Shown: piece after piece, positions 3,254 through 58,664 of the stretch | Layout of the letters: the number at the start of each line of letters is the position of its first letter | Numbering within the stretch: the stretch's first letter is position 1 | DNA from: Candidatus Hermodarchaeota archaeon | GTDB taxonomy: Archaea; Asgardarchaeota; Lokiarchaeia; Sigyniarchaeales; SOKP01 | Reading direction: 5' to 3' | DNA length: 62,411 bases | NCBI GenBank assembly: GCA_048885705.1 | Contig: JBHLLJ010000003.1 | Span: 1 to 62,411, forward strand | Made by a program: the position numbers and the translations under genes | The notes under the pieces: model-generated | The model's database searches: none | Told to the model about the DNA's origin: nothing | Seen by the model: the letters and a program-made list of their open reading frames with translations, nothing else

Positions 3254-4492
3254 ATGGAAGTTCGTCCAGAATTACTTGCACCTGTTCAAGAATGGAATAC
3301 ACTAAAAGTAATAAGTGGTATAGCAGATGCTATATATTTCGGTATAGACAAATATAATATGAGGCAAAAAGCAAGAAACTTTGAAAGGGAAGATTTAAGT
3401 AAAGTTTCTGAATTTTGTCATAATCAAAATCCACCAATAAAAGCATATTTAACCACAAACATTTTAATATATGATAAAGAATTACAAGATTTGGAAAAAC
3501 TGATTCTAGAAGCAAAAGATGCTCAAATTGATGCTATAATCGCTCATGATCTTGCTGCTATTAGAATAGCCAAAAGAAATAATATAAAATTTCATATCTC
3601 AACACAAGCTAATATTTCTAATATTGAAACTGCGAAATTTTTTGAGGAATATGGTGCTGAAAGGATAATATTAGCTAGGGAACTTTCATTAGAGCAAATA
3701 AAATTAATTAAACACCATCTTACAACTACTGAAATTGAATGCTTTGTTCATGGTTCAATGTGCACCTCAATTTCAGGGAGATGCTATCTTTCAGCCACCA
3801 TCTGTGAATCAGAAGTTTATTCAGCAAACAGAGGAAATTGTGTCCAACCTTGTCGCCGAGAATGGCGAGTTATTGATGATGAGACTAATGAATTCATTTA
3901 TGACGGTCAAATGTTTTTAAATGCTAAGGATCTTTGCATGATTGAATATATACCCGAACTTATTAACGCTAAAATAGATGCATTTAAGATAGAAGGAAGA
4001 ATGAAGGATGCTCTATATGTTAAAATAGTTACAGAATGTTATAGAGAAGCAATAGATAGCTATTTTAATGAATCCTATACCCAAGATAAGATAAATATAT
4101 GGTTGGAACGATTATCAAGTGTATATAATAGGGGTTTTCATACGGGTTTCTATTTCCAAAAACCAACTATAGAGGATATTGAACTAGGAAAAAGAGGAAA
4201 TGTTTCTCATTATAAAAAACATTACCTAGGTAAAATTCTTTCTTATGATAAAATTAGCAAATCTGCTAATGTTCTGTTAGAAAGTTTAGATTTCCCCTTA
4301 AAAGTTGGTGATGAAATTTTTATCATTGGACTTAATACTTCTGTCATTGAAACAATAAAAAAAATGATATATAAAGGAGAAAAAATTAAAAGTATAGTTA
4401 GAAAACGTTATAGTGACCCCATAAGGATTAATCTTCGTATTAATAAAGAGGTTGAAATGGATGATAAAATTTATGCATTGTACTTAAAATAA
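3254..4492 (+). CDS. peptidase U32 family protein (collagenase-like / RNA hydroxylation-associated family)
   Basis: 412 aa. It has ELLAP...ADAIYFG near the N-terminus, a Cys-rich core FVHGSMCTSISGRCYLS...NRGNCVQPCR, and a KIEGRMK motif. Confidence 0.8.
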   Translation: MEVRPELLAPVQEWNTLKVISGIADAIYFGIDKYNMRQKARNFEREDLSKVSEFCHNQNPPIKAYLTTNILIYDKELQDLEKLILEAKDAQIDAIIAHDLAAIRIAKRNNIKFHISTQANISNIETAKFFEEYGAERIILARELSLEQIKLIKHHLTTTEIECFVHGSMCTSISGRCYLSATICESEVYSANRGNCVQPCRREWRVIDDETNEFIYDGQMFLNAKDLCMIEYIPELINAKIDAFKIEGRMKDALYVKIVTECYREAIDSYFNESYTQDKINIWLERLSSVYNRGFHTGFYFQKPTIEDIELGKRGNVSHYKKHYLGKILSYDKISKSANVLLESLDFPLKVGDEIFIIGLNTSVIETIKKMIYKGEKIKSIVRKRYSDPIRINLRINKEVEMDDKIYALYLK

Positions 4493-11320: not shown

Positions 11321-12895
11321 TTAATTTATAGATTTTATTTGTGTTTCTACTTTTTCAGTTAGAATAAGCGGATTTATTCTATTATTAGACGCATCTGGTC
11401 TTCTAATTGTTTTACTTTTTATTCCACGTTCCATTATTTCCTTCATTTCATCAGAAATTATATCCTTTGTCATTCCCATTGAATGAAGCATATCCAATCC
11501 ACTCTTAATAACTGTTTTAGCAAAACGAGGTACATTTCTCCCCATCCAATTAAATTTTCCAAAAGGATTGCAATATCTTTTTGCCACCATTTTAATCCAT
11601 CCCTTCAGATAGTATGCAGAATAAGCTTCACCAACTAATTGGTATATTTCATTATTTGTGAGCTGTTCTGTGCGCATCATTGGATGGAATAAATCATAAT
11701 ATCTATAATTATTACTTGTAATCATACTTTTTTCTGACATTTCATGATAAAAATCAGTTCCAGGAAATGCTGTTATGGGTGTAAATTGAATACAGGTCAG
11801 ATTAAGTGATTTTGCAAATTGGATATTTTCTCTAACCATTGTCTTAGTTTCACCTGGAAACCCAATAATCACTCCTCCAAATATAGAGATTCCTCGATTT
11901 TGAAGTGAAGAAACTACCTTTTTGACCATATCTGGTTTAGTGTTTCGTTTATTCATAGCATCAAGACTTTGTTGATGCATTGATTCAATTCCTAGAAATA
12001 CTTGCCTAATACCAGCTTTATGCATTAGATCAATCAACCATGGATTTCGGTATAAAGTATCAACACGAGATTGGCAGGAAAAATAGATTTTATTTGGTAC
12101 CCCCGATCGAATGATAGTATCAAGTATTTCCTTTGTCCGCTTTATTTTAATGGTAAAGTTATCTTCACAGAAAAAAATAAAATCATTTTTCCAGTCTATA
12201 TCATAAATTTCCTGCATAATCCTTTTAGTTGATTTTGTACGATATGTAACTGGACGATCATTGTTCCGCCACATCTTTATTATGCAGCAAAATTTACAAT
12301 TATGAGGACATCCTCTTGAAGTTTCAAGTTGGGCGACTCTTGCACCTAAATAAATGTACTTTTTATCATCTAATAGATCTCTTCGAGGCATTGGAAACTT
12401 ATCAAGGTTAGGTTCCAATTTTCTATCCTTATTATGTAAAACCTGTCCATCTTTATTCTTATAAGAGATACCATCAATATCTTTTAAAGAAATATGATTT
12501 TTTGCCTCATCAAGATAACTTATTAGTTCACGAAATGTATGTTCCCCCTCTCCTCGAACCGTATAATCAATCGCGGGATGTTTTGCAACGTATTCAGGAG
12601 CTAATGTTGGTTGATAACCACCTATTATAGTTGTACAACCAAGATCTTTTGCCATTTCTGCCACCTCAAATGCATGAGAGATTTGAGGTGTCATACTTGT
12701 GAGAGCTACAACATCACTTTGGTTCAATAATGAACGAAATTTGTTTTCATTATACTTATGGACTTTAAAATCAAACAATTCTGCTTCATGCTCTGGAACC
12801 ATAGCTGCAATTGATATTAAGTTTAATGGAGGTCCTTTAATAATCGCATCGAGCCCAGAGCTAAGTCGTGCTGGATTAACATATAAAATTTTCAA
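11321..12895 (-). CDS. B12-binding domain radical SAM protein
   Basis: An N-terminal cobalamin-binding-like domain (MKILYVNP...ALTSMTP) is followed by the radical SAM cluster motif SRGCPHNCKFCC (CX3CX2C). TTG start. Confidence 0.8.
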   Translation of the reverse strand: MKILYVNPARLSSGLDAIIKGPPLNLISIAAMVPEHEAELFDFKVHKYNENKFRSLLNQSDVVALTSMTPQISHAFEVAEMAKDLGCTTIIGGYQPTLAPEYVAKHPAIDYTVRGEGEHTFRELISYLDEAKNHISLKDIDGISYKNKDGQVLHNKDRKLEPNLDKFPMPRRDLLDDKKYIYLGARVAQLETSRGCPHNCKFCCIIKMWRNNDRPVTYRTKSTKRIMQEIYDIDWKNDFIFFCEDNFTIKIKRTKEILDTIIRSGVPNKIYFSCQSRVDTLYRNPWLIDLMHKAGIRQVFLGIESMHQQSLDAMNKRNTKPDMVKKVVSSLQNRGISIFGGVIIGFPGETKTMVRENIQFAKSLNLTCIQFTPITAFPGTDFYHEMSEKSMITSNNYRYYDLFHPMMRTEQLTNNEIYQLVGEAYSAYYLKGWIKMVAKRYCNPFGKFNWMGRNVPRFAKTVIKSGLDMLHSMGMTKDIISDEMKEIMERGIKSKTIRRPDASNNRINPLILTEKVETQIKSIN

Positions 12896-18904: not shown

Positions 18905-20173
18905 ATGGGGTTTAATATATTATTAGTGAATCCAAATAGATTTAAAAATCCGCCAGTAATCCCTATTGGCTTAGAATATCTGGTGACTGCATTAGAGAAA
19001 CAGAATCATAATGTTGATATACTAGATTTATGCTTTTATGAATCACCAGAAGAACGGTTAGCTATGACTCTGAATAATACAATATATAATCTTGTTGGGT
19101 TCTCAATCCGTAATATAGATTCTCTAGGTTATTTTAATAATGAGTTCTTTTTACCTTCCATAAAACCATTGGTAAAAATTGTTAAAAAGCACAATATTCT
19201 AGTAATTCTTGGTGGCTCTGGGTTTTCTGCTATGCCATATGAAATCTTAGATTATCTTGATGGAGATTATGGAATTATAGGCCCTGGTGAGGCAATTTTT
19301 CCTCGTTTTATTGAATTATTGCAATCCGGACAATTATCAAAAAAAATTTATAATGGCTGGCAATATAATACGGACTCTGAGTTGGTTCATTTACGTGGAA
19401 AAAAGATTGATTATGGAAAATATTTACCTCTCTCTGAGATAATTGGATTTGAAACTCATAAAGGATGTTTAGGACAATGTCCATATTGCATTAATGCTAA
19501 TACACAAATTTGGTATAAAAAAATCCAAAATATTATAGAAGAATTAAAATTTATTGTCAGTCAGGGGTACACTCACTTTCAGTTATGTGATGATGAATTT
19601 AATTCAGATTTAAAATTTTCAATCAATTTTTGTGAAGCATTAACCAAGGCAAAACTTCCGTTAAAATGGAAGTTATTTATGAAACCTTATCCTTATAATA
19701 AAAAATTATTCAAATTGCTGCATGAAACCAATGCGTATAGAATATCGATTAATGTAAATAGTGATATAAAAATTCAAGAATTAAATAATTATACATATCA
19801 AGACTTAGAAAAGATTATTGGGTATTGTAAAGAATACAAGATAGAGTTAGTAATTGATTTAATAGTTGGTTACCCATATGAAACACTGGATTCTGTTAAA
19901 AATATGATCAATTTTTTTAAGAACCATCGACCAACTACAATAACTGTTGATTCTTACTTCCGGGTATACGAACATACCGAATTAGCTAAACTGATAAGAA
20001 AAGATACCTCCATACAAAGAAATTTGATAAAACCTCAATTAGAAAGATTGGAGTTCTTAGAACCTGTTTTCTATAATCAAATTAGTCAGAGTGTACTAGG
20101 AGAATTAATTTCAGATGATGAATTGTTTAGAATTGCCTGGCTTACTCCAGAATTAGATTATAAAAAGATCTAA
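18905..20173 (+). CDS. B12-binding domain radical SAM protein
   Basis: The N-terminus ILLVNPNRFKNPPVIPIGLEYL resembles a cobalamin-binding-like domain. The cluster motif is HKGCLGQCPYC (CX3CX2C). Confidence 0.7.
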   Translation: MGFNILLVNPNRFKNPPVIPIGLEYLVTALEKQNHNVDILDLCFYESPEERLAMTLNNTIYNLVGFSIRNIDSLGYFNNEFFLPSIKPLVKIVKKHNILVILGGSGFSAMPYEILDYLDGDYGIIGPGEAIFPRFIELLQSGQLSKKIYNGWQYNTDSELVHLRGKKIDYGKYLPLSEIIGFETHKGCLGQCPYCINANTQIWYKKIQNIIEELKFIVSQGYTHFQLCDDEFNSDLKFSINFCEALTKAKLPLKWKLFMKPYPYNKKLFKLLHETNAYRISINVNSDIKIQELNNYTYQDLEKIIGYCKEYKIELVIDLIVGYPYETLDSVKNMINFFKNHRPTTITVDSYFRVYEHTELAKLIRKDTSIQRNLIKPQLERLEFLEPVFYNQISQSVLGELISDDELFRIAWLTPELDYKKI

Positions 20174-46835: not shown

Positions 46836-47162
46836 TTAATTAATTTTAGCTTTCTCCCTTTTCAAGCTTTTAAATTTAATTTCAGCTTTATTCTTCTCCA
46901 ATCGAAAATCACTAATTTTGACTGTTGAATATTTAGTACCAGTTGGATAAGTATTTCTTTCAATTAATATATAAACAAAAACTGTGAGAACTGATAAAGT
47001 AGTAATCGTTATAACTATTATAAGTACAAGGAGCACTATAGAAAATGTCCTACCTCTGGAATTTTTAAAAAAAAATAGAGAGCTTATCTCTCTTTTGGTT
47101 AATCCTAATTCCTTTCCAATTTTATATATCCTAAAAATAGTATCTATCATTTCTATAAACAC
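46836..47162 (-). CDS. small single-span membrane protein, paralogue B of 49757..50002
   Basis: GTG-TTT start. It shares the motifs YKIGKELGL, one hydrophobic span, and YPTGTKYSTVKISDF with paralogue A. It has an extra Lys-rich tail. Confidence 0.5.
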   Translation of the reverse strand: MFIEMIDTIFRIYKIGKELGLTKREISSLFFFKNSRGRTFSIVLLVLIIVITITTLSVLTVFVYILIERNTYPTGTKYSTVKISDFRLEKNKAEIKFKSLKREKAKIN

Positions 47163-47182
47163 TCACCTCTCAAATTCAGATT

Positions 47183-48307
47183 TTATATATTTAAGATTTT
47201 CGAATAAAAATTTTTATATTTTGATAAAATAGAATCCATTTTTCCTTTTGTTTTTAACATTTGGGAATTAAAATGAAGATCCTCTATTGATCGTAAACAA
47301 TAAGGTGAATTATCTGATTTTATAGCAGATCTAGTCCCTAAACAACCTCCTTTGCATTCATTCACCATATCGCAACTTTTACAATATCCGTGTAAACTCT
47401 CCTTTGTAAAATTTCGATTATAGTTAAAGGCTTGAGGGTTAGATAAAATTTGTTTTAGAGGTTGATTCCGTATATTTCCTTCAATAAATTTATCTGAAAG
47501 AGTTAAGCAACCTTTAATATTTCCATTGCTTTGAATACCTAGTACAGAATATCCAGCTTGACAACCAATCCATGGTGCTAATCCTAAATTCGGTATAAAT
47601 CTTGAAAAATAACCAAAACAATGAGCTCCAATTACAGGAAGTCTTCGATAGGAATATTTTTTCACATTGATTGCTATAAACATTGCTAATGCATAATATT
47701 CTTCCCTTGAAATCATTAAATCTTTAGGAAATCGTCCAATTGGGACTGCCAATTGAATTTGCCATGACATATTTCGGTCTAAAATTAAATTTTTAATTAA
47801 ATCTACTTCCTTTAAGTTCTTTTTATTAACTGCAGTTATTATTGAAACAGGAAGTTTTTCTTTTTTTAAAATTTTCATTGCATTTAGAGTTTTATCATAG
47901 GCACCTTTAATTCCTCTAAGATAATCATGTGTTTCGGGAGTTCCACCGTCTAGACTTAAAGATACACAATCTACATTTAGTTTTTTTAATTTTTGAATAT
48001 GATTAAGAACATTTAATCCATTTGTAACAATTGATAAATCCATTTTATATTTCTTAACTTCTTTCGCAATTGAATACCAATCCTCTCGAATTAAAGGTTC
48101 TCCCCCCATTAATGCTACACCTTTATACCCACATGAATGTAACTCATTAACTAATTTTAATGATTCCTCAGTAGTTAATTCGTCTGAACGAGCACTACCG
48201 GCTCTAGATCCACAATGAATACATTTGCTATTACATTTTAGAGTAATTTCCCACACAGCACAGGAGTTTTTAATTCTACGGGTTAAAAGTGTTATTAAAC
48301 TTGGCAT
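47183..48307 (-). CDS. radical SAM enzyme with C-terminal SPASM domain
   Basis: The radical SAM motif is CNSKCIHC (CX3CX2C). The SPASM pattern is complete: C...NGNIKGC (Gx4C), CKSCDMVNECKGGC (CX2CX5CX3C) and a trailing SPYC. Confidence 0.85.
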   Translation of the reverse strand: MPSLITLLTRRIKNSCAVWEITLKCNSKCIHCGSRAGSARSDELTTEESLKLVNELHSCGYKGVALMGGEPLIREDWYSIAKEVKKYKMDLSIVTNGLNVLNHIQKLKKLNVDCVSLSLDGGTPETHDYLRGIKGAYDKTLNAMKILKKEKLPVSIITAVNKKNLKEVDLIKNLILDRNMSWQIQLAVPIGRFPKDLMISREEYYALAMFIAINVKKYSYRRLPVIGAHCFGYFSRFIPNLGLAPWIGCQAGYSVLGIQSNGNIKGCLTLSDKFIEGNIRNQPLKQILSNPQAFNYNRNFTKESLHGYCKSCDMVNECKGGCLGTRSAIKSDNSPYCLRSIEDLHFNSQMLKTKGKMDSILSKYKNFYSKILNI

Positions 48308-48425
48308 TGACGTTTTAGGATTTCATTATTGAAATATAAAATTGAATAAATTTCTTTAAAAACTTTTATATTTAAAATTGGCCATTTCATAATATAATCT
48401 TGGTGAATATTACATTAACTAATTT

Positions 48426-49760
48426 TTAATTAATAGAATGATATTTATCAAGGTTTAAGATAGGATTAAAGTTCATTAATTTTTTTGTTGGCTTCTTTAC
48501 ATAACTTATTTCTGAAGTAATATCCTTCCGAATCATCTTTTTATTCTTTATTTTGCTAATTTTTAATAACCTTAACGTTCTCTTATAAATTTTTAGTGCA
48601 TTTGCTTTTAAATTTAATTTAACAAGCACTTTTGCCAAATTCCAATAATAAATGAAATCATCCCTGAATAATTGAATGGACTCTAAAAATTTCCCTTTAG
48701 CAATTTCATAATTTTGTTTATAAAATTCTTTTATTCCCTGATAAAAATATTCTTGGGATTTTTTTTGAATTAGAGTAAAAGTGAAGAAAAATAACTCATT
48801 CGATGTATTACTCTTTGAGAGCTCCTTTAGATGAGTTAATTGATTCTTCTTTTCATTTCTATAAAATAATAACTTCTCTATTATCGTTTCGCCAAATGAC
48901 TTTATCGATAAGAACGCCAACTTTTGAGTTCCAGGTATTGTAGGCAGCTTTTTTAGAGAATTAAGCAAGATATTAGGTAGGTTGTATTCTATTATATATT
49001 CTACTATTTCATTAAAGTATTTTATCTCAAAACTCGAAAGATAATTCAAATTCTCAATCGTATTAAGAAAAATTTTAGCTACTTGAGGAAATTTTAGTAG
49101 AATAGTCTTGAAAATTTCAATGATAATTACTTTATCTCTCTTTCCTTCAAACTCTTTTACCTTAACTAAAATAAAAGTAATTAATTCCTCCATTTCTTTT
49201 ATTAGAAAAGAGTTTTTAAAATCTACAATGTCTTCTAATAAAATTTTTTTTCGAATATGTGTAATGATTTGAAAGAGATTCGATTTCGAAGGTTTTTTAC
49301 ACTCAATCCTTAGTGTGGGTATTGATTCTGGATTATAATATTTCTTCTCATTTATATCAATAAATCCTATTTTTATAAGCATTTCAGTTAACAATTTTGG
49401 AGGATAACATAATTTATGTTGAAGACCTTCATGAGGGATACCAAATACCCAACCTAATATTTCTTTTTGTTGTTCATAGTCTCCGTGTAAGTATGATTGG
49501 AAAGCTTTTTCGATATCAGGAGTTTCTATTATTAGAATTCCATTATTCTGTAAAACCCTGAAAAATTCACTTAAAACGTAAAGAGCCTCGAAAAAACCTA
49601 TATGCTCAATGAATTGAATTGCTTTAACCTCTTCACAAGAATTATCAGGAAATGAGAGATTTGTAGCAGATATTTTTTGATCTGCTAATATACCCTCATA
49701 TAAATCAATATTACAATAATCTGATTCATATCTTTTTCCAGAACCAACGTTTAACTTCAT
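48426..49760 (-). CDS. class I SAM-dependent methyltransferase domain fused to a helical/TPR-like C-terminal region
   Basis: The N-terminus LNVGSGKRYESDYCNIDL...FPDNSCEEVKAIQFIEHIG...VLQNNGILIIETP is Methyltransf_11-like. The C-terminus has TPR-like pairs (YEIAKGKFLESIQL..YYWNLAKVLVKLN..ALKIYKRTL). Its start overlaps the upstream small ORF by 4 nt. Confidence 0.6.
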   Translation of the reverse strand: MKLNVGSGKRYESDYCNIDLYEGILADQKISATNLSFPDNSCEEVKAIQFIEHIGFFEALYVLSEFFRVLQNNGILIIETPDIEKAFQSYLHGDYEQQKEILGWVFGIPHEGLQHKLCYPPKLLTEMLIKIGFIDINEKKYYNPESIPTLRIECKKPSKSNLFQIITHIRKKILLEDIVDFKNSFLIKEMEELITFILVKVKEFEGKRDKVIIIEIFKTILLKFPQVAKIFLNTIENLNYLSSFEIKYFNEIVEYIIEYNLPNILLNSLKKLPTIPGTQKLAFLSIKSFGETIIEKLLFYRNEKKNQLTHLKELSKSNTSNELFFFTFTLIQKKSQEYFYQGIKEFYKQNYEIAKGKFLESIQLFRDDFIYYWNLAKVLVKLNLKANALKIYKRTLRLLKISKIKNKKMIRKDITSEISYVKKPTKKLMNFNPILNLDKYHSIN

Positions 49761-50002
49761 TTTTTATGTTTAAAATCATTTATTTTAACTGTTGAATATA
49801 AGGTTCCACTTGGATAAACAGATCTTGACCCAACAACTACAACAACAATGACGACAACCGCTATTAAAGCTAATATAAATATCAATAAAAGCTTAAATAA
49901 CAAAGATCGATTCCCTGAAAATATAAATGTTTTGTTAATTTCGCTACTCTTCAATCCTAACTCTTTTCCAATCTTATAAAATTGAGTTATTTCTTTAAAC
50001 AC
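49757..50002 (-). CDS. small single-span membrane protein, paralogue A of 46836..47162
   Basis: GTG-TTT start. Sequence: MFKEITQFYKIGKELGLKSSEIN...TM...YPSGTLYSTVKINDFKHKK. Confidence 0.5.
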   Translation of the reverse strand: MFKEITQFYKIGKELGLKSSEINKTFIFSGNRSLLFKLLLIFILALIAVVVIVVVVVGSRSVYPSGTLYSTVKINDFKHKK

Positions 50003-50170: not shown

Positions 50171-51997
50171 TTATAGAGCATATTGTTTTATTTTCTTCAT
50201 AATATTATCTTTAATTTCTTCGATCTGGTGAAAGGCTTCATTAGGTACTGTTTGATTTATTCGCAAAATTGAGTTTATTAGGTCTAACCCTAAAACATCT
50301 TCTATATTTATTTTTCGTTCTAGTAGAATTTTTCCCTCCTTATAGATTAAAAGTATAATTTTGATCATCCCTAATAATTTCTTAATATTTGTGAAATTAT
50401 CAATCTCATTGTAAGCATTTTGGATTAGAAAACCATTTTTTATCATGTTGGTAATAAAAAGTATTAATTGTTGATCTTCAGGTAAATTTTTTTGTCCTAC
50501 TAACTGAATGATATGTTTCAAATCTTGTTCTTTTGATAGAATCTCGTTCATTTGGTTTCTACACTCGGACCAGTCAAGATCAATCTCAGGCCAATCAATA
50601 TCTCTTTCAAACCACCATTCTGTTATAAATTGGGGATAATTAGAATATGAATTTAGCCAATTAATAGCAGGGTAATGTTTTAGATAAGCTAAATTAGGAT
50701 CTAATGCCCAAAAACCTTGAACTAAACGTTTTGTTGTAGAAGTTACCGGTTCACTAAAGTCACCTGCTGGAGGAGAAATAGTACTAACAATTGAAATTGA
50801 ACCTTTTCTTTCATTTCCTAGATGATCTTTTCCTATGGTATTAACAACTCCTGCTCTTTCATAAAAACTTGATAATTTAGATGGTAGATAAGCAGGATAA
50901 CCTTCTTCTGCTGGCATTTCCTCTAGTAATCCAGAAATTTCTCTTAAGGATTCTGCCCATCTTGATGTACTATCTGCGAGAACTAAAACATTATACCCCA
51001 TATCTCGAAAATATTCTGCTATGGTAACTCCTGAAAATAGACTAGCTTCTCGAGCAGACACAGGCATATTGGATGTGTTAACAATAAGTATTACTCTGTC
51101 TAATATGGGTTTACCACTCCTAGGATTTACTGTTTCTGAAATTTGTTTCATAATATTTGCAATTTCATTACCAGGTTCACCACATCCGATATACACACAA
51201 ACGTCTACATCACTCCATTTAGCTAAGGATTGTATTATAACGGTTTTACCCGTTCCAAAGCCTCCTGGGATTGCTGTAGTTCCTCCTTTAACTATTGGAA
51301 ATAATAAATCAATAATTCTTATACCTGTAATTAAGGGTTCCTGAGGATTTTCTTTTCTTTTAAAAGGGCGATTTTTAGTAATTGGCCATTTTTGCAACAT
51401 AGAAAAAGATTCTTCTTTATGCATGTTTTTGATCTTAAAAATCTCATCAATAATAGTATAATCTCCTTCATGTGCAATAAATGATATTTTTCCTGAAATA
51501 AAAGGGGGGACCATAATTTTATGATCAATTAATGCAGTTTCTTGAACAGTACCAATAATGTCTCCCTCGTTAACCTCCTCATTAACTTTTTTTAAAGGTA
51601 TGAAATGCCATTTTCTAGTCCTCGATAAACAAGGATAATTAACTCCTCTCACTAATTCTCCAGTAGAATAATGAGTAAATACTTTACCTAATGGTCTTTG
51701 TATCCCATCAAAAACCTTCCCAAGAATTCCAGGTGCTAATTCCATGGATAAAGGTTCGTTCAAACTAATAACTTTTTCATTCAATTTTAAGGATATAGTA
51801 TTTTCAAAACATTGAGCCACAACATGATTAGAAAAAATTTGAATTATTGTTCCTAGAATATTATGTTTGGGAATATTAATTAAATCATAAAGACGTACAT
51901 GATTCTCTAACCCCTTAACTTTAATAAGAGATCCTATAATTGAAGAAATATATCCATATTTTATTTCGCTTTCTATCATCTTTTTTGCACAAACCAT
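50171..51997 (-). CDS. atpA: A/V-type ATPase catalytic subunit A paralogue (second copy) with GEPGNE in place of GERGNE
   Basis: It is colinear with 56820..58664 and roughly two-thirds identical to it by eye. Walker A is PGGFGTGKTV. IGCGEPGNE has Pro encoded by CCT (plus-strand agg at 51173-51175). Confidence 0.85.
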   Translation of the reverse strand: MVCAKKMIESEIKYGYISSIIGSLIKVKGLENHVRLYDLINIPKHNILGTIIQIFSNHVVAQCFENTISLKLNEKVISLNEPLSMELAPGILGKVFDGIQRPLGKVFTHYSTGELVRGVNYPCLSRTRKWHFIPLKKVNEEVNEGDIIGTVQETALIDHKIMVPPFISGKISFIAHEGDYTIIDEIFKIKNMHKEESFSMLQKWPITKNRPFKRKENPQEPLITGIRIIDLLFPIVKGGTTAIPGGFGTGKTVIIQSLAKWSDVDVCVYIGCGEPGNEIANIMKQISETVNPRSGKPILDRVILIVNTSNMPVSAREASLFSGVTIAEYFRDMGYNVLVLADSTSRWAESLREISGLLEEMPAEEGYPAYLPSKLSSFYERAGVVNTIGKDHLGNERKGSISIVSTISPPAGDFSEPVTSTTKRLVQGFWALDPNLAYLKHYPAINWLNSYSNYPQFITEWWFERDIDWPEIDLDWSECRNQMNEILSKEQDLKHIIQLVGQKNLPEDQQLILFITNMIKNGFLIQNAYNEIDNFTNIKKLLGMIKIILLIYKEGKILLERKINIEDVLGLDLINSILRINQTVPNEAFHQIEEIKDNIMKKIKQYAL

Positions 51998-52002
51998 ATA
52001 TT

Positions 52003-52419
52003 TTATTGTAAAATAACCTCATTACAGAATGGGCACTTTTTAACAAAGTTAGGCACAGTATTTCCACAATTCTTACATTTGTTTATTATAGATTTGCGGT
52101 AGTTGAAATCCAAATTCATAGGTTTAGGAATTTTTGATTCTAGCTGATTATGTTCCTTTTGTTTCAGATTATTGTTTCTTTCTCCACTTTTTTTATTTGA
52201 AAACATCCGAGAATAAAGAGTCCTCTTTTTTGGTCTTAAAAAAGGACCAATAGTAGCTAAAAATATAAAAATCAATAAGATTGAAACAATTAAAGGATTC
52301 AAACCAAAATTAACTAAAAGATAATACAAATAAATAAAGAGAGCTAAATAAATCGTTAAACCAATTAATTTTAATGCGGTTTTTTTACTTGATTTTTGAT
52401 TTTTTTTTTCTGACACCAT
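52003..52419 (-). CDS. small membrane protein with C-terminal zinc ribbon, embedded in the ATPase operon
   Basis: It has two hydrophobic spans, then a basic linker and CKNCGNTVPNFVKKCPFC. It lies 37 nt after atpI and 5 nt before the second atpA copy. Confidence 0.5.
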   Translation of the reverse strand: MVSEKKNQKSSKKTALKLIGLTIYLALFIYLYYLLVNFGLNPLIVSILLIFIFLATIGPFLRPKKRTLYSRMFSNKKSGERNNNLKQKEHNQLESKIPKPMNLDFNYRKSIINKCKNCGNTVPNFVKKCPFCNEVILQ

Positions 52420-52456: not shown

Positions 52457-54769
52457 TCATTTAAATTCTTTAATAATATAACTCTTAGCTTTATCAATCT
52501 CTTCTTTTACAGATTTAATCTCGATTTCTTTATCAATCTCTTCAGAAATTATGTCTCTATCGAGTTCTCTGGTAAATGATATAAATGAATAATTGTCATC
52601 AAGATAGAATGGAAAATATTCAATACCAGATCCTTGAAAGAATTTGAAAAAGAATTCATAATAATGCAATCTCATAGTATTTATAAAGACAAGCAAGCCT
52701 TCTATGAGAATCACGACCATATTTCCAAATATAGCTCCGATTAGGTTTAAGATATCAAATCCAATCCCTACTCCTTGAATTAAGTTTCCCATTTGATTTA
52801 TAGCAAATAGTAAAGCAATATGAGCTAATGCCAAGGCTAACAATCTAATGTAAGATAACACATTACTCATCACTGATAATAAAGTATCAAAAGTTTCAAT
52901 TGATCCCTCACCTATTAAACCTCCAATAGATTCTTGCTGTAAATAGGATATCTTAAAGATTTTTCCAAATGGTTTTGAAAATATTAATAATAATCCTGGA
53001 ATCAAAACAAATAAAATTGGATATGGATAAGATAACCATATATTAATATTAAATCCATAACCGAATATTAAAATTGCACCTCCTAATAAAAAGAAAATCT
53101 TCATTAATGAATCGCTAAATGCTAGATATTTTCTACTTTGCTTCCAATAATTTAAGAATTGAATAAACCATCCAAGAATTATGTGAAATATCCCAATTGT
53201 TATAGCAAAATAAAAAACGGATAATATATTTCCCAACGGATTATATAATTGTATAATTACATTTATATTTAAATATGGAATTACTATTGGAATTACTATT
53301 GGATTTTCTTCAAAATTCCATATTATATTGCCGAAAATTTCTATTTCATGATGTCCAAAAAATTCACCATAAAAAAATCCTATGAGAAAAGAAGCCCATC
53401 CACAATAGAAGATAATCCAAGAAAAACTTGAAAACGTTTTTTTTCTCTTCTTAAATGCTAGAGCCCCAATAAATCCTGCAATTATTAAAACTAAACCATG
53501 CCCTATATCACCGAACATAATTCCAAATAATATTGGAAAGGTGAATGCTATAATCGGAGTAGGATCTATTTCGGAATATGTAGGTGTACCGTACATTTTT
53601 GTAATTGTTTCAAAAGGTTTTGCTAAGAAAATATTTTTCATGATTCTTGGAGTAACATCTCTTAAATCTTCAAAATGTTCATCTTTTCCATTTTTTGATT
53701 TAAATTCTTCAGATTTTGATTTGAAGCCGAGTTTTTCTTTTTTAAACTCTTTCTTTTTATAGGATTCACGAATTGGACGCTTTTTAGAAACATCAATCGA
53801 TTCAATTAAGATATTTTCTTTAAATTTATTGAATAAGTCTTCTTTGATTATATTCTTTTTTGATAAAGGCACAAAAAATTTAAGAATTGTTCTATTTGCA
53901 GAACTTACTTCAAATTGTTGAGCTGCCCAGTTATACTCTTCGATATTCTGAACAATTTCGTTAATTCCTGCGAACTTTATTAAATTATCACTAGAAATTC
54001 TGTTTTGTTCTTTATTATAGCGTGATAACAAGTCTTTTATAAATTTTATTTCAGTATCAATTCGATTGTAATTGATACCAGTATCAGTTAAATACTTTTT
54101 TAAAATTGGAACTTCTTCAGAATGAATCAATCGAATTCTTCCATTAAATTCATCCTCTTTATCTTTTGGATAAAATATATAGAATCCAGTTCGATCCTCT
54201 GAGATTTGAAATGTCTCATAATAATTAGGGAATTCTGAGAATGTAAAAAGATTGATTAAATTTTCTAAATTCTTGGAAAAGGTAGTAAAAACTCTAAATT
54301 TAAAATATTTTAAGTTGGGAACATTATTATTTGTTATTTCTATTTTTTCAAGGTATTTATAACATTTTTTTACAATTTCTATATTTTCCAACTCTATTTT
54401 TGCTTTAGATATATAACTTTTCAATTCTATAGCTCTATTCGTAAAGAATTCAATTTCTTCGAGAACATGATTAATTAATTCGTCGAGATCTTGAGCTTTA
54501 AACTCTATTCTCTCTGATTTATTTATTCTCAAATTATTTATATCTTCTTGATTAATATCGAGTCGATTAAATAACGTATCTAGGTTTTTTCTCACTAAAT
54601 TAATTTTTTCAACAATAGGTTTTTTTTCTTCTATCTCTCCTTGCAGTTCAGATTTTTCTTTTGGTTTAATATGTACCGTATTTAAATTAGAAAGTTCAAT
54701 CAAAAGCTGGTCTTTATAATTATAATTTATATCCACTTTCATCAGGCAAAATTCATCTTTTTTTCCCAT
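52457..54769 (-). CDS. atpI: A/V-type ATPase subunit I (stator a-subunit homologue)
   Basis: 770 aa. It has an N-terminal soluble coiled region and a C-terminal polytopic domain with SYIRLLALALAH (essential Arg motif). Confidence 0.8.
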   Translation of the reverse strand: MGKKDEFCLMKVDINYNYKDQLLIELSNLNTVHIKPKEKSELQGEIEEKKPIVEKINLVRKNLDTLFNRLDINQEDINNLRINKSERIEFKAQDLDELINHVLEEIEFFTNRAIELKSYISKAKIELENIEIVKKCYKYLEKIEITNNNVPNLKYFKFRVFTTFSKNLENLINLFTFSEFPNYYETFQISEDRTGFYIFYPKDKEDEFNGRIRLIHSEEVPILKKYLTDTGINYNRIDTEIKFIKDLLSRYNKEQNRISSDNLIKFAGINEIVQNIEEYNWAAQQFEVSSANRTILKFFVPLSKKNIIKEDLFNKFKENILIESIDVSKKRPIRESYKKKEFKKEKLGFKSKSEEFKSKNGKDEHFEDLRDVTPRIMKNIFLAKPFETITKMYGTPTYSEIDPTPIIAFTFPILFGIMFGDIGHGLVLIIAGFIGALAFKKRKKTFSSFSWIIFYCGWASFLIGFFYGEFFGHHEIEIFGNIIWNFEENPIVIPIVIPYLNINVIIQLYNPLGNILSVFYFAITIGIFHIILGWFIQFLNYWKQSRKYLAFSDSLMKIFFLLGGAILIFGYGFNINIWLSYPYPILFVLIPGLLLIFSKPFGKIFKISYLQQESIGGLIGEGSIETFDTLLSVMSNVLSYIRLLALALAHIALLFAINQMGNLIQGVGIGFDILNLIGAIFGNMVVILIEGLLVFINTMRLHYYEFFFKFFQGSGIEYFPFYLDDNYSFISFTRELDRDIISEEIDKEIEIKSVKEEIDKAKSYIIKEFK

Positions 54770-54789
54770 AATCTCCTCACTAAATTTGT

Positions 54790-55431
54790 TTATTCTTGCT
54801 TAATAATAAGATCTTTTGTCTTTTTCAATCTAACATAATTTTCTCTTTCAATTTCCTCTAAAATGTCTTTAATTTGTTTGATATTTGATTCTAATCTAGG
54901 TATTATTACATTTTTCAAACCATTTATCCTTCTATTAACTTTTTTAAAAGATGATGCAACTTTTAGGATTAAATCTTCAATTTCAGAAAATTTTATAATC
55001 TTATTAAAGAATTCTTTTAAAACTATTAATAAATCATCAAGATAATGACTTGTATTTTCAAAAGTATAAGCGGGAAGTTTCTTTTCTTGAAACAACTCAT
55101 AGTCTATTTGAGTAATTACAAGTCCCATGTTTTTTACTGTTCGAATATTAATCCTTGGTTTATATTGGATTCTACTTAATTTGCTAATTAGAATTACTTC
55201 ATTTTTGCCCATTTCTTCATAGGTTTTAGTTAAAGTGTTAATAGATCCTTTGAATAATTTAAGAAGTTCTTTCCTTTTTGAATTATAATCCATCCATAGT
55301 TTTTTAATTTGAAGAATGAGTTGTTCACGTCTAATTTCTAAAAAATTTTGCCCTTTAATTGCAAAATCTAATCTTCTTTTTAAATTAAGTAAATTTGTTT
55401 TTGTAGGTTTAATTTCTCTAAAACTTATGAT
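54790..55431 (-). CDS. atpD: A/V-type ATPase subunit D (central stalk), apparently initiating at ATC/ATA directly after the atpB stop
   Basis: The track ORF starts at MDYNS (55293). The in-frame upstream sequence IISFREIKPTKTNLLNLKRRLDFAIKGQNFLEIRREQL is the conserved subunit-D N-terminus. Confidence 0.75.
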   Translation of the reverse strand: MISFREIKPTKTNLLNLKRRLDFAIKGQNFLEIRREQLILQIKKLWMDYNSKRKELLKLFKGSINTLTKTYEEMGKNEVILISKLSRIQYKPRINIRTVKNMGLVITQIDYELFQEKKLPAYTFENTSHYLDDLLIVLKEFFNKIIKFSEIEDLILKVASSFKKVNRRINGLKNVIIPRLESNIKQIKDILEEIERENYVRLKKTKDLIIKQE

Positions 55432-56823
55432 TTACACCTGCGGTTTATGGTATTTGTCAATATATTTAGGATGAATTCTAATTAATTGGTCTTTATTTAA
55501 ATGGGAAAGAGTCTCCCAAGCACGATTTAGGGTTTGGTCAAAATCTCTACTTTCAGTCGATTTTTGATTAAGAAATTTTTGTTCAAAATCAAAACCATAT
55601 TTTAATAGATTTCTTTGATCATTATTTAAACCATCTTCACCTACAATGGAAATTAAATCTTTAACTTCAAGATAGGATGAATATGAAGCTAATAATTGAG
55701 AACTAACATCTGCGTGATCTTCCCTTGTCTTATCCTTCCCTATAGCATCCTTCATTAATCTTGATATTGAAGCTAATACTTCAAAGGGCGGATATACATC
55801 TTTTTTTTGTAACGCACGGCTAAGAACCAATTGTCCCTCGGTAATATAGCCAGTAGTATCTGGAATGGGATGAGAAATGTCATCATTTGGCATTGTAAGA
55901 ATTGGGATCTGGGTTATTGTTCCTTTTTTTCCCTTGATTTTTCCCGTTCTTTCATAAATTGAAGCAAAATCTGAATAAATATAACCGGGATATCCCTTTC
56001 TACTAGGAATTTCTTCTTTAGCAGAACTAAGTTCTCGTAAAGCTTCGGCATAATTAGTCATATCAATTAAAATTACTAACACATGCATATCTTTCTCAAA
56101 AGCATAATATTCAGCAGTAGTTAAGGCAACTCGAGGAATTATTAATCTTTCAATAATTGGATCATCGGCAAAATTAATGAAAGAGACAATATTTTGAAGC
56201 TTTCCACTTTCTTGAAATCTACTTAAGAAATATATTGCTTCATCTTGGATTATGCCAATTCCACAGAATATGATTACAAACGGTTCTTCTGACAAAACTT
56301 TTGCTTGAGTTGCTATTTGAGCCGCTAATTTATTATGCGGTAATCCTTGTCCGCTAAAAATAGGAAGTTTTTGACCTCTAATAAGGGTAAAGAGTCCATC
56401 AATTACAGAAATACCTGTTTGTATAATGTCTACAGGATATTCTCTAGCAAAGGGATTAATAGGAGTTCCATTAATGTCTTTTCGAACATCAGTTAATATA
56501 TCGGAATCTAAAACATTCTTCGTCCTAATATCAATGGGATGTCCGAGTGAATTGAAAGTTTGTCCAAACATATCTTTTGATATGTTTATTTTAAAAGTAT
56601 CTTCTGTAAATGTGATTTCTGCATTTTCTGAGGACAGTCCTGAAGTATCCTCGAAAACTTCAACAATAATCATATCTTCAGTCATTTTAATTATCTGTCC
56701 TGTTCGAATATTATTATCCTCCGTTTTAATTCGAACTATCTCACCGTATTGAGCACTATGCTCATTTTTTAAAAATAACAGTGGCCCAATAATCTGCTGA
56801 ATCTTTTTATAAATTACACTCAT
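55432..56823 (-). CDS. atpB: A/V-type ATPase subunit B
   Basis: 463 aa. YGEIVRI, GQKLPIFSGQGLPHN and YPGYIYSDFASIYERTG are regulatory-subunit motifs. It has a 4-nt overlap with atpA. Confidence 0.9.
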   Translation of the reverse strand: MSVIYKKIQQIIGPLLFLKNEHSAQYGEIVRIKTEDNNIRTGQIIKMTEDMIIVEVFEDTSGLSSENAEITFTEDTFKINISKDMFGQTFNSLGHPIDIRTKNVLDSDILTDVRKDINGTPINPFAREYPVDIIQTGISVIDGLFTLIRGQKLPIFSGQGLPHNKLAAQIATQAKVLSEEPFVIIFCGIGIIQDEAIYFLSRFQESGKLQNIVSFINFADDPIIERLIIPRVALTTAEYYAFEKDMHVLVILIDMTNYAEALRELSSAKEEIPSRKGYPGYIYSDFASIYERTGKIKGKKGTITQIPILTMPNDDISHPIPDTTGYITEGQLVLSRALQKKDVYPPFEVLASISRLMKDAIGKDKTREDHADVSSQLLASYSSYLEVKDLISIVGEDGLNNDQRNLLKYGFDFEQKFLNQKSTESRDFDQTLNRAWETLSHLNKDQLIRIHPKYIDKYHKPQV

Positions 56824-58664
56824 CTTTTACCGTATACACTCCGTGTTAATTTTAATTCCTCTATTTGATTTAATAGTCTATCTTTTATATTTTCTAATTT
56901 ATCAAAACTTTCGTTAGGAATAGTTCGATTAATTCTTAGAATTTCACTCATTACCTTAAGATTTTTAATTTCTTCAATATAAAATCCTTCTTTAATAAGT
57001 TCCTTGCCTTCTTTATAAACTAAAAGAACAATTTTTATAGATCCTAATAATTTCTTGGTATTAGTATAATTATCAATATCATCGAAAGCGTTTTGAATGA
57101 GAAAACCATTTTTAATCAATTGAGCAATGAAGATAACTAACCTCTGGTCTTCTGGCAAGTTTTCTTCTCCAACAAGTTGAGTAATATACCTTAATTCATT
57201 ATCTTTAGAGAGAATTTCATTTACTTCTTTTCGACACTCAAGCCAATCAATATCAATTTCGACCCAATCAAAATCCCTTTCAAACCACCAATCAGAAATA
57301 TATTCTGGATAATTAGAGTAGGAATTTAGCCAATTAATTGCTGGATAATGCTTTGAATATGCTAATCCTGCATCTAATGACCATATCCCTTGAACAAAAT
57401 TTTTTGTGGTAGCTGTAACAGGTTCGCTAAAGTCTCCCGCGGGTGGAGATACAGAACCAATGATTGTAATTGATCCGATCTTCTCTTTTCTACTATTATC
57501 ACCTCCCAACAATTCAACAATACCTGCTCTTTCGTAGAAACTTGAAAGTTTTGAAGGTAAATATGCAGGGTATCCTTCCTCTGCTGGCATTTCTTCTAGC
57601 AATCCAGAGATTTCTCTAAGAGATTCTGCCCATCTTGAAGTACTATCAGCTAGAACAGCAACATCATATCCCATATCTCTATAATATTCACCTATTGTTA
57701 CTCCTGAAAAAATGCTAGCTTCACGCGCGGATATAGGCATATTTGACGTGTTTGCAATAAGAATTATGCGTTCTAGTAAAGGACGTTTAGTCTGGGGGTC
57801 GATTAATTCAGAGAATTGATCTAATACATCAGCTATTTCATTTCCTCGTTCCCCGCATCCTACAAAGACAATCACATCTGCGTTACACCATTTTGCTAAA
57901 GATTGCTGTATAACTGTCTTGCCTGTCCCAAATCCTCCTGGAACTCCAATTGTACCACCTTTAGTGATTGGGAATAGTAAATCTATTACTCGAATACCTG
58001 TGATTAGAGGTTCATTAGGCATCTTTCTCTCTTTAAATGGTCTGGCTTTATTTACAGGCCATTTTTGTAGCATTGAAAAGGATTTTTCTTTATTACCTAT
58101 TTTTAGCCTATAAATCTCATCTATAACAGTATATTCTCCTTCCTCAGCAATAAAAGATATCTTTCCAGTTATATATGGAGGTATTAATATTTTATGTTCT
58201 ATTCGAGATGTCTCTTGAACAGTTCCTATAACATCACCACCGAATACGGTCTCATTGATGCTCTTCTGTGGTTTGAAATGCCATCTATGTTGCCTTGAGA
58301 TTGGTTCAATTTCTAATCCTCGTTTTAATCCGCCTTCTTTAAAATTATCAAATGCTTTTTGCAGTGGTCTTTGGATTCCATCAAATATCTTACCTAATAA
58401 TCCTGGTCCTAATTCCATTGAGAGAGGTTCATTTAAGCTGATAACCTCATCATTTATTCTTAAATTTGTTGTATTTTCAAAACATTGAGCTACAATATAA
58501 TCAGAATAAATTTGAATGACTTCTCCTAAAAGATTATATTTTGTTACCTTAATTAGATTGTGGAGCTTAATTTGGCGTTCTAATCCTTTAATCCTTATTA
58601 TAGAACCCATTATTGCAGATATATATCCACGTTCAGGGTTTTCATTAGATTTGGATTTGATCAT
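56820..58664 (-). CDS. atpA: A/V-type ATPase catalytic subunit A
   Basis: GPGLLGKIFDGIQRPL, Walker A PGGFGTGKTV, the catalytic motif VGCGERGNE, and ADSTSRWAESLREISG. Confidence 0.9.
   Translation of the reverse strand: MIKSKSNENPERGYISAIMGSIIRIKGLERQIKLHNLIKVTKYNLLGEVIQIYSDYIVAQCFENTTNLRINDEVISLNEPLSMELGPGLLGKIFDGIQRPLQKAFDNFKEGGLKRGLEIEPISRQHRWHFKPQKSINETVFGGDVIGTVQETSRIEHKILIPPYITGKISFIAEEGEYTVIDEIYRLKIGNKEKSFSMLQKWPVNKARPFKERKMPNEPLITGIRVIDLLFPITKGGTIGVPGGFGTGKTVIQQSLAKWCNADVIVFVGCGERGNEIADVLDQFSELIDPQTKRPLLERIILIANTSNMPISAREASIFSGVTIGEYYRDMGYDVAVLADSTSRWAESLREISGLLEEMPAEEGYPAYLPSKLSSFYERAGIVELLGGDNSRKEKIGSITIIGSVSPPAGDFSEPVTATTKNFVQGIWSLDAGLAYSKHYPAINWLNSYSNYPEYISDWWFERDFDWVEIDIDWLECRKEVNEILSKDNELRYITQLVGEENLPEDQRLVIFIAQLIKNGFLIQNAFDDIDNYTNTKKLLGSIKIVLLVYKEGKELIKEGFYIEEIKNLKVMSEILRINRTIPNESFDKLENIKDRLLNQIEELKLTRSVYGKR

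Follow-up and report, generated by a model that had tools for sequence, protein, structure and literature searches.

Contig JBHLLJ010000003.1 of a Candidatus Hermodarchaeota archaeon (assembly GCA_048885705.1), of which we analyzed positions 1 to 62,411 (hereafter the window), carries on its minus strand a compact group of four co-directional genes that we consider here as a candidate peptide-maturation cassette. In their order of transcription these genes code for a small protein of 81 residues (A; 49757-50002), a 444-residue methyltransferase with a TPR-like tail (48426-49760), a 374-residue radical S-adenosylmethionine (SAM) enzyme with a SPASM domain (47183-48307) and a second small protein (B; 46836-47150, 104 residues). 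An earlier note made from the letters alone had described the four open reading frames in this order and, apart from the start of B, at these positions; all of them are present, and the 4-nt overlap that it saw between the A and methyltransferase genes is likewise evident from the coordinates. The 20-nt gap that it gave between the radical SAM gene and B widens to about 32 nt once B is begun at the ATG at 47150 (see below), and a spacer of 118 nt separates the methyltransferase and radical SAM genes. The G+C content of the region is 27-30%, and its closest public relatives are metagenome-assembled genomes of Promethearchaeota (Asgard), in which both enzymes show 85-88% protein identity to those of the window.

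The radical SAM enzyme matches the Pfam families Radical_SAM (E 3.9e-27) and SPASM (E 1.5e-8). Its translation displays the cluster motif C25-x3-C29-x2-C32 in the beta/alpha core (residues 25-32; 48212-48235, minus strand), which places it in the radical SAM superfamily, and the complete seven-cysteine SPASM motif, namely C249-x12-G262-x4-C267, C310-x2-C313-x5-C319-x3-C323 and C338 (residues 249-338; 47294-47563, minus strand). The cysteines of both motifs are invariant in 32 homologs, in agreement with the canonical CX3CX2C and full SPASM signature reported in the earlier note. The AlphaFold2 model has a predicted local distance difference test score (pLDDT) of 79. The radical SAM core begins at about residue 14, which leaves no room for an N-terminal domain, and there is no fused recognition element (RRE) of the kind used in pathways for peptides that are made by the ribosome and modified after translation (RiPPs). 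Searches with the NCBIfam hidden Markov models (HMMs) recovered as best match TIGR04103, the "nif11-class peptide radical SAM maturase 3" (225.6 bits over residues 14-339, with the cut-off at 725), and as second TIGR03913, the "GDL motif peptide-associated radical SAM/SPASM maturase" (189 bits against 591.75), followed by AhbD and NirJ (135-155 bits), WgkB, MftC (124 bits) and PqqE (87 bits). By these scores the enzyme is to be placed in none of the curated families tested (TIGR04103, TIGR03913, MftC, PqqE, anaerobic sulfatase-maturating enzymes (anSMEs) and triceptide maturases). Its Foldseek neighbors, BlsE, SkfB, SuiB, PqqE, anSME and CteB, represent the general SPASM/twitch set (template modeling (TM) scores of 0.6-0.67 at 16-22% identity). 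A position inside the anSME clade, which the earlier note had named as a finding that would undo its proposal, is not observed: the best 25 NCBIfam matches include no anSME model, and anSMEs of the PDB are matched at E 3.6e-7 by sequence and at 18-19% identity by Foldseek. No sulfatase gene was seen in the neighborhoods examined. We have therefore rejected an anSME identity, and also that of a lipid (GDGT-MAS/Gms-type) or tetrapyrrole (AhbD/NirJ) enzyme, as the likeness extends to the generic core only. As an observation apart, the enzyme ends in a lysine-rich helix of about 25 residues with low pLDDT (residues ~349-374, the helix itself at 349-372; nt 47186-47261), which is typical of the Asgard-clade enzymes (362-378 aa) and absent from the shorter ones of the sister clades (344-352 aa) described below; it could serve as a membrane or partner contact.

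Taken alone, the 444-residue protein gives weak Pfam matches, to Methyltransf_11 just under the cut-off (E 5.5e-4) and to TPR_2 (E 0.028). Across 32 homologs these families are recovered in 28 and 19 proteins respectively, the latter with a best E of 5.5e-7. The AlphaFold2 model (pLDDT 88) displays a Rossmann methyltransferase fold in residues 1-155 (49296-49760, minus strand) and an all-helical domain in residues 161-444, and the top Foldseek matches are the SAM methyltransferases 3sm3, 2p8j and 1vlm (E ~3e-6). As for the G-x-G motif I and the acidic residue after strand 2 that mark such folds, G6, G8 and D19 are invariant, and so are E52 and H53. Thus the methyltransferase with a TPR-like tail proposed in the earlier note, weak in the window protein, becomes solid at the level of the family and the modeled fold, and we predict that the protein is a class-I SAM methyltransferase joined to a TPR-like helical domain. 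All source organism names given for its 131 homologs are those of Asgard lineages. A relationship of the TPR part to Sgt2/SGTA was considered and dropped, the match not being significant (E 0.16).

The two small proteins are paralogs, as had been supposed: BLASTP aligns them at 40% identity over 86 aa (E 3e-13), and the two stretches that the earlier note had found in common, the N-terminal YKIGKELGL and the tail Y-P-x-G-T-x-Y-S-T-V-K-I-x-D-F, are invariant columns in the alignment of A and B. Protein A comprises an N-terminal segment of residues 1-25 (49928-50002, minus strand), a hydrophobic span at about residues 35-58 and the conserved tail YPSGTLYSTVKINDF at residues 63-77 (49772-49816, minus strand); for reasons developed below we term these the leader, the span and the core, the last being the putative site of modification as delimited by the conserved columns and by tandem repeats in sister clades. 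Counting from its terminal phenylalanine as Phe0, the core includes Tyr-14, Tyr-8 and Asp-1. The equivalent segment of B, placed by alignment with A and the homologs, is YPTGTKYSTVKISDF (46905-46949, minus strand), and B has a longer basic C-terminal extension than A. In an alignment of 26 Asgard homologs Y63, G66, Y69, S70 and F77 of A are invariant, the tail is conserved to the same degree as the leader, and the latter conforms to the pattern ..F/I-Y-K-I-G-K-E-L-G-L-x-K-x-E-I... Neither A, B nor the corresponding proteins of relatives match any Pfam or NCBIfam family, even at E 10. The resemblance of YPxxxL in A to an ALIX/ESCRT late-domain-like motif was set aside as coincidence; its leucine is variable (32/76), B has a lysine in its place, and non-Asgard relatives read YKAGT.

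The translation starts of both small genes required attention. A begins at a GTG with GGTGA 10 nt upstream, and its homologs of 81-84 aa with the same N-terminus favor the 81-aa form over the public gene call of 65 aa (P0028), which uses an internal TTG, removes the conserved leader and is too short. For B the longest open reading frame reaches to a GTG at 47162 (46836-47162, minus strand), which directly abuts the ribosome-binding-like site GAGGTGA, and the ATG at 47150 agrees both with the N-termini of homologs (MIDxI...) and with the public gene call (P0001, 104 aa). On these grounds the ATG at 47150 is most likely the start of B, and the impression that both genes start GTG-TTT is then an artefact of mechanical open reading frame calling.

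To place these proteins in their genomic setting we collected their homologs and gene neighborhoods. A profile of A and B recovered 235 proteins, all unnamed or labeled "hypothetical", with every named source belonging to an Asgard lineage, and a HMMER scan of 1.84 billion representatives yielded only 66 clusters of this family. In the GTDB species genomes the small gene is present at 30 loci, all Asgard, and at 29 of these tblastn places the radical SAM and/or methyltransferase gene directly beside it (3 of the 29 being cut by contig ends); the sole orphan locus, L025, comes from the same assembly as a locus with the full cassette (L003). A frequent occurrence of the small proteins away from the radical SAM gene, which the earlier note had regarded as fatal to its idea, is thus not what these genomes display. 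Among the first 600 pattern matches listed from metagenomes, at least 560 encode a relative of the radical SAM enzyme. Two layouts recur, the one of the window with a small gene on either side of the methyltransferase-radical SAM pair, and one in which the radical SAM gene is followed by one to four small genes, the methyltransferase gene and in some cases a further small gene, with up to five small genes per locus. The surroundings of the cassette vary, including an A-type ATPase operon in close relatives, Arf/Ras GTPase genes and thiolases. As the same genes sit in unrelated neighborhoods, we regard the cassette as a functional unit that, on this comparison of loci, is not tied to the adjoining ATPase genes. 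A search of IMG/VR recovered no cassette, and we have abandoned the idea that it is virus-borne.

Relatives outside the Asgard clade throw further light on the organization of the small proteins. The Asgard radical SAM enzymes share at least 55% identity, and those of the sister clades are 47-56% identical to the window enzyme; TIGR03913 scores 186-241 bits against the sister-clade enzymes and is the best model for three of the five scanned (219-241 bits). In small open reading frames beside the sister-clade enzymes we recognize the N-terminal motif of A and B, in the general form [IL]GKxLGL..[DE]I, as well as their C-terminal core, Y(-14)-[PK]-x-G(-11)-[TAS]-x(-9)-Y(-8)-[SGA]-[TSG]-[VI]-[KSR]-[ILP]-x-[DE](-1)-[FL](0), anchored on the terminal D-F, or more briefly Y-[GSA]-[TG]-[VI]-[SK]-x-x-[DE]-[FL]. 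All precursors inspected by eye have Tyr(-8), and no position of the core varies more than -9. At least five precursor architectures combine this one leader motif with this one Tyr-centered core. Besides the Asgard form, these include a soluble multi-core form with 2-7 tandem cores and no membrane span, exemplified by the L040 precursor that begins MKDVYKMGESLGLSRKDID... / MKDVYKMGESLGLSRKDIDSVV... and continues with seven core-like units, the last four reading LYKAGTRYGTISPTD or a ...PED variant; a soluble single-core form ending in ...YKDGSLYGTVSINDF; and a second membrane-span form, ..KLGQTLGLD..TM..GLYYTGVSIKDF (PGGPxGLYYTGVSIKDFQILFG), where TM marks the span. In the 174-residue protein P0419 three whole leader+core units stand in tandem, the first being ..ELGRQLGITETKI...YGGALYGTISPLHF, and from this arrangement leader and core appear to have been duplicated together. 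Finally, at L113 (6521-6832) and L076 (~3612-3950) the leader is followed by a lipoprotein signal peptide (..LAAC, ..LLAC), a spacer and the cores YPCGTRYYTVSPADF and YPAGTRYATVSHKDF; these genes adjoin a radical SAM and a methyltransferase-like gene, and their G+C content of 56-68% together with the lipoboxes makes a bacterial origin probable. For the other sister clades the neighboring genes (tRNA-Thr_ED, NAC and PurP-type) point to archaeal hosts.

The partner genes of these precursors vary. Full-length homologs of the methyltransferase-helical protein (27-40% identity) accompany sister-clade radical SAM enzymes at about 20 metagenome loci, B12-binding radical SAM genes take the place of the methyltransferase at most multi-core loci, and most loci with the second membrane-span form have the precursor and the radical SAM gene only, with the same leader present. 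When the loci flanked by 2 kb or more at both ends are compared, a methyltransferase or B12-binding radical SAM gene is nearby at 42/42 loci with Tyr(-14) cores and at 3/10 with cores devoid of Tyr(-14), one clade dominating the set so that the counts are not phylogenetically independent. This offers a lead that methylation may target the Y-x-x-G half of the core. Separately, many sister-clade loci (several within L040-L058) code for two tandem SPASM radical SAM paralogs, about 50% identical, per precursor set, suggesting that in those lineages one radical modification follows another.

Taken together, the conserved leader, the core that stands apart from it and may be present in several copies, and the obligate linkage to a radical SAM/SPASM gene constitute a RiPP-type signature, and for this reason we read the small proteins as precursors. 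On the strength of these sequence comparisons we consider it likely that the four genes form a self-contained RiPP-type maturation cassette with A and B as its duplicated substrates. As in RiPP loci, short putative precursor genes adjoin the maturase and combine a conserved leader with a distinct core in at least four architectures. The best curated matches of the radical SAM enzyme are peptide maturases, and SkfB, SuiB, PqqE and CteB are among its structural neighbors. The suggestion in the earlier note that A and B are duplicated substrates of the adjacent enzyme is accordingly strongly supported, both by the near-obligate co-occurrence and by the soluble sister precursors in which the same leader heads tandem cores. 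It had considered a membrane-spanning substrate an oddity; the wider comparison recasts the span as a lineage-specific insert between leader and core, replaced in the GC-rich relatives by a lipoprotein signal peptide.

The precursor architectures across the family are also the reason for taking the N-terminal segment as a leader, the span as an insert and the tail as the core. The segment had previously been likened to a helix-turn-helix, with A and B as possible membrane-tethered regulators whose tails are modified; we considered regulators with unmodified tails as well, and IGKELGL-x-K-x-EI does superficially resemble a helix2-turn-helix3 signature (IAxxLGVSxxTV). However, neither small protein matches a helix-turn-helix family in Pfam or NCBIfam, a three-helix domain would not fit into the approximately 30 residues ahead of the span, soluble peptides made up otherwise of repeated cores alone begin with the same motif, and the motif is always accompanied by a radical SAM/SPASM gene. 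We have hence discarded this reading as highly improbable.

The repeated cores bear equally on the notion that the small proteins are membrane adaptors or activators comparable to the PlpY helix, with the radical SAM enzyme and the methyltransferase acting on another molecule such as a lipid, a tetrapyrrole or a protein. The leader does resemble the activating helices of spliceotide systems (PMC11414181), the tetrapyrrole radical SAM models AhbD and NirJ match the enzyme at the 135-155 bits given above, and the lipid synthase GDGT-MAS is a weak PDB match (E 4e-4). Nevertheless, an adaptor would gain nothing from repeating a 15-residue motif, as happens in the soluble relatives that consist of a leader and 2-7 tandem cores alone, nor would it account for the tandem duplication of whole leader+core units in P0419 or for a tail as conserved as the leader; moreover, the neighborhoods examined hold no conserved gene for a candidate third substrate. 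An adaptor role is by this evidence quite unlikely.

Several points weigh against the precursor interpretation. The substrate relation is drawn from gene context and architecture, the radical SAM enzyme, measured against any curated family, attains roughly a third of the cut-off score, and the SAM-binding competence of the methyltransferase domain is judged from conserved motifs alone. No PqqD/RRE family match was obtained for any of the four cassette proteins with Pfam or NCBIfam, and the cassette neighborhoods examined showed neither a protease nor an exporter dedicated to it. The charge balance of the Asgard forms favors an N-in/C-out orientation weakly: within 15 residues of the span the mean charge is ~+2.7 for the N-terminal flank and ~+1.1 for the C-terminal one, both flanks being basic, and the distal tail is strongly basic, rendering the topology ambiguous. 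Furthermore, from Asgard through other archaea to probable bacteria the core changes less than one would expect of a RiPP; a cofactor or a structural role would account for this better than a bioactive peptide under diversification. With respect to the missing RRE, this element is not obligatory, as binary spliceotide systems lack one (PMC11414181).

The conservation of the core is the principal argument for a reading in which the small proteins are still substrates, with a Tyr-derived redox or catalytic group instead of a bioactive peptide as the product, either released or kept on the membrane-anchored peptide, along the lines of pyrroloquinoline quinone, mycofactocin or the QhpC/QhpD quinoprotein. 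Not only is the core preserved nearly residue for residue in very distant lineages (invariant Tyr, Gly, Asp/Glu and Phe/Leu), but the precursors PqqA and MftA of known cofactor pathways are similarly conserved, the MftC and PqqE models match the enzyme, multi-copy cores would increase the yield, and immunity genes, like those for a protease or exporter, were not seen in the cassette neighborhoods examined. In the systems for pyrroloquinoline quinone (PqqE/PqqD/PqqA) and mycofactocin (MftC/MftB/MftA), likewise, the target of a SPASM radical SAM enzyme is a Tyr, which belongs to a short and strongly conserved precursor, and PqqE is structurally similar to the window enzyme (TM ~0.6). Yet the cassette has no PqqD/MftB-type RRE partner, its precursor is membrane-anchored and in many relatives the core is not C-terminal; the downstream tailoring enzymes typical of cofactor pathways are absent, and no consistent oxidoreductase client gene is found in the neighborhoods examined. 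The MftC and PqqE scores also lie well below their cut-offs of 265 and 381 bits, as well as below those of two peptide-maturase models. Taken together, these observations make cofactor or prosthetic-group biogenesis unlikely.

Returning to the maturation cassette, the arrangement of leader, span and core allows a sequence of events to be proposed. The leader would dock the newly made 81-104-aa protein on the cytoplasmic radical SAM/SPASM enzyme, which would act through a 5'-deoxyadenosyl radical on Tyr(-8) of the core or next to it. Methylation by the methyltransferase-TPR protein would follow, probably within the Tyr-x-x-Gly half, and the span would finally enter the membrane as a signal-anchor, so that the modified tail comes to lie on the outside. 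The radical SAM enzyme is itself probably the leader reader, since the same leader persists where only precursor and radical SAM genes are present. Proteins of 81-104 residues leave the ribosome before the span is fully exposed, and hence targeting would be post-translational; if the tail is exported, its modification is needed before insertion. The lipobox variants suggest that the hydrophobic element acts as an export or anchor signal and that the core is destined for the outside of the cytoplasm. What the comparisons given above show directly is the gene content, the paralogy, the co-occurrence, the leader/core organization of the family and the protein folds; that the enzymes act on A and B, in which order, and how the products sit in the membrane, we infer from them.

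A similar passage of a modified protein through the membrane is known for QhpC, the gamma subunit of quinohemoprotein amine dehydrogenase, a small protein that is modified by the cytoplasmic radical SAM/SPASM enzyme QhpD and then crosses the membrane. The modifications that QhpD introduces are Cys thioethers, and the export of QhpC relies on an ABC transporter dedicated to it and on a protease. In contrast, the cores of the cassette contain no Cys, and no such transporter or protease is found at the cassette.

As for the chemistry, tyramine-excision-like splicing and a Tyr-centered cross-link are the leading candidates and appear equally plausible from the sequences. Splicing is suggested by the best HMM match, by the variable residue before Tyr and the small residue after it, and by the Y-G repeats of the soluble relatives. 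The best-scoring model, TIGR04103, presumably corresponds to the InterPro entry IPR026482. To this entry belongs PlpX (PMC11002830), a component of the spliceotide systems (PlpX/PcpX with PlpY, and the binary RhaX/RhaA), whose radical SAM enzymes, like that of the cassette, have a full SPASM domain and no fused RRE. In the binary systems the leader helix binds the radical SAM enzyme directly (PMC11414181), and the splice motif of spliceases is X-Y-G (PMC9811515), the X of which is matched in the cassette by the most variable core position, ahead of the universal Tyr and a small residue. Y-G is the dominant form in the soluble sister precursors, where it occurs in tandem repeats. On the other side, the TIGR04103 score is less than one third of the cut-off, the cassette precursors are not of the Nif11/NHLP type, and the cassette stands apart by its span or lipobox between leader and core, its class-I methyltransferase-TPR partner and its archaeal host. 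A further point against splicing is that, unlike the Y-G of characterized spliceases, the Asgard cores have Y-S (in 72 of 76, with L-Y-S and K-Y-S in the window).

Other systems offer more partial parallels. The TIGR03913 family, like the cassette enzyme, is defined by association with a short peptide, which we take to be one with a Tyr and an acidic-Leu motif; the window enzyme does not reach its 592-bit cut-off, and no NCBIfam peptide family matches the precursors. Triceptide systems, with which the earlier note had speculatively compared the tails, have in common with it the radical SAM/SPASM enzyme and an aromatic-x-x unit (YPS, YST in the cassette). This comparison did not hold up: no triceptide model is among the best 25 of the 86 NCBIfam matches, in several lineages the residue two places after the universal Tyr, at the would-be link position, is Gly (YTG, YGG), which has no C-beta for the link, and Tyr(-14) is missing from one whole clade.

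Turning to the remaining features of the locus, the methyltransferase-radical SAM spacer contains the BRE/TATA-like element (B recognition element and TATA box) AAAAGTTTTTAAAGAAATTTA (48347-48367, minus strand), about 40-60 nt upstream of the ATG of the radical SAM gene. An alignment of the spacers from eight loci preserves most of it (72% mean column identity), and the six closest do so best; it is probably an internal archaeal promoter; by virtue of its position the cassette may be transcribed as two units, A-methyltransferase and radical SAM-B.

The A-type ATPase operon that adjoins the cassette (minus strand, 50171-52419 and 52457-58664) was considered as a functional partner, and this was rejected because the cassette lies in unrelated contexts elsewhere. 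The operon has a feature of its own, a second A-like catalytic subunit of 608 aa (50171-51997) with the Walker A motif GGFGTGKT, which is present besides the ordinary A subunit (614 aa) and B subunit (463 aa) and comes after subunit I and a 138-aa membrane protein (52003-52419) with a zinc-ribbon-like C-terminal CxxC...CxxC end; the same arrangement is found in the relatives L001-L003. These relatives also contain, between the B-type small gene and a tRNA-splicing endonuclease gene, an extra 196-aa open reading frame without Pfam match (11357-11947 in L001), which is absent from the window. Elsewhere in the window, two genes resembling those of B12-binding radical SAM enzymes (11321-12895, minus strand; 18905-20173, plus strand), at a distance of 27-35 kb from the cassette, code for proteins about 25% identical to the B12-binding radical SAM enzymes beside sister-clade precursors; no link between them and the cassette is established.

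Much new enzyme chemistry has come from the radical SAM/SPASM peptide maturases, of which, to our knowledge, those of archaea are almost entirely uncharacterized. The cassette appears from these comparisons to function like a binary radical SAM/SPASM RiPP pathway, distinguished by precursors that are anchored in the membrane, by a methyltransferase-TPR protein as partner and by the lack of a protease or exporter of its own, and to represent an Asgard-specific branch of a much larger undescribed family. The Asgard branch is unusual in its membrane-protein substrate and in lacking a protease and an exporter, and for that reason its product is probably a lasting, modified part of the cell envelope in the closest prokaryotic relatives of eukaryotes. 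A full-text literature search found no description of the cassette. Scott et al. 2022 are described as having mined YG-rich precursors beside radical SAM-SPASM genes in bacteria and archaea (PMC10849128, PMC11626197), and their collection may already list the soluble Y-G relatives. With one leader motif and one Tyr-centered core, the large and coherent family defined here is a clear target for heterologous expression, its soluble multi-core members provide an easy experimental route to the chemistry, and the lipobox and span variants are a natural test of the coupling of RiPP-like modification to general secretion.

As a more speculative extension, which we ourselves hold to be rather doubtful, the product might be new altogether: a Tyr-derived group made in the cytoplasm by undescribed radical SAM chemistry and methylation. 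It might be a ketoamide "warhead", a cross-linked ring or a quinone-like cofactor, and a signal-anchored peptide would present it on the outside of the Asgard membrane. The tripartite design of leader, export/anchor signal and core would in that case let general secretion or anchoring replace the protease and exporter of a RiPP pathway, and would have arisen several times, with the Asgard span, the second archaeal span and the bacterial lipoprotein signal peptides.

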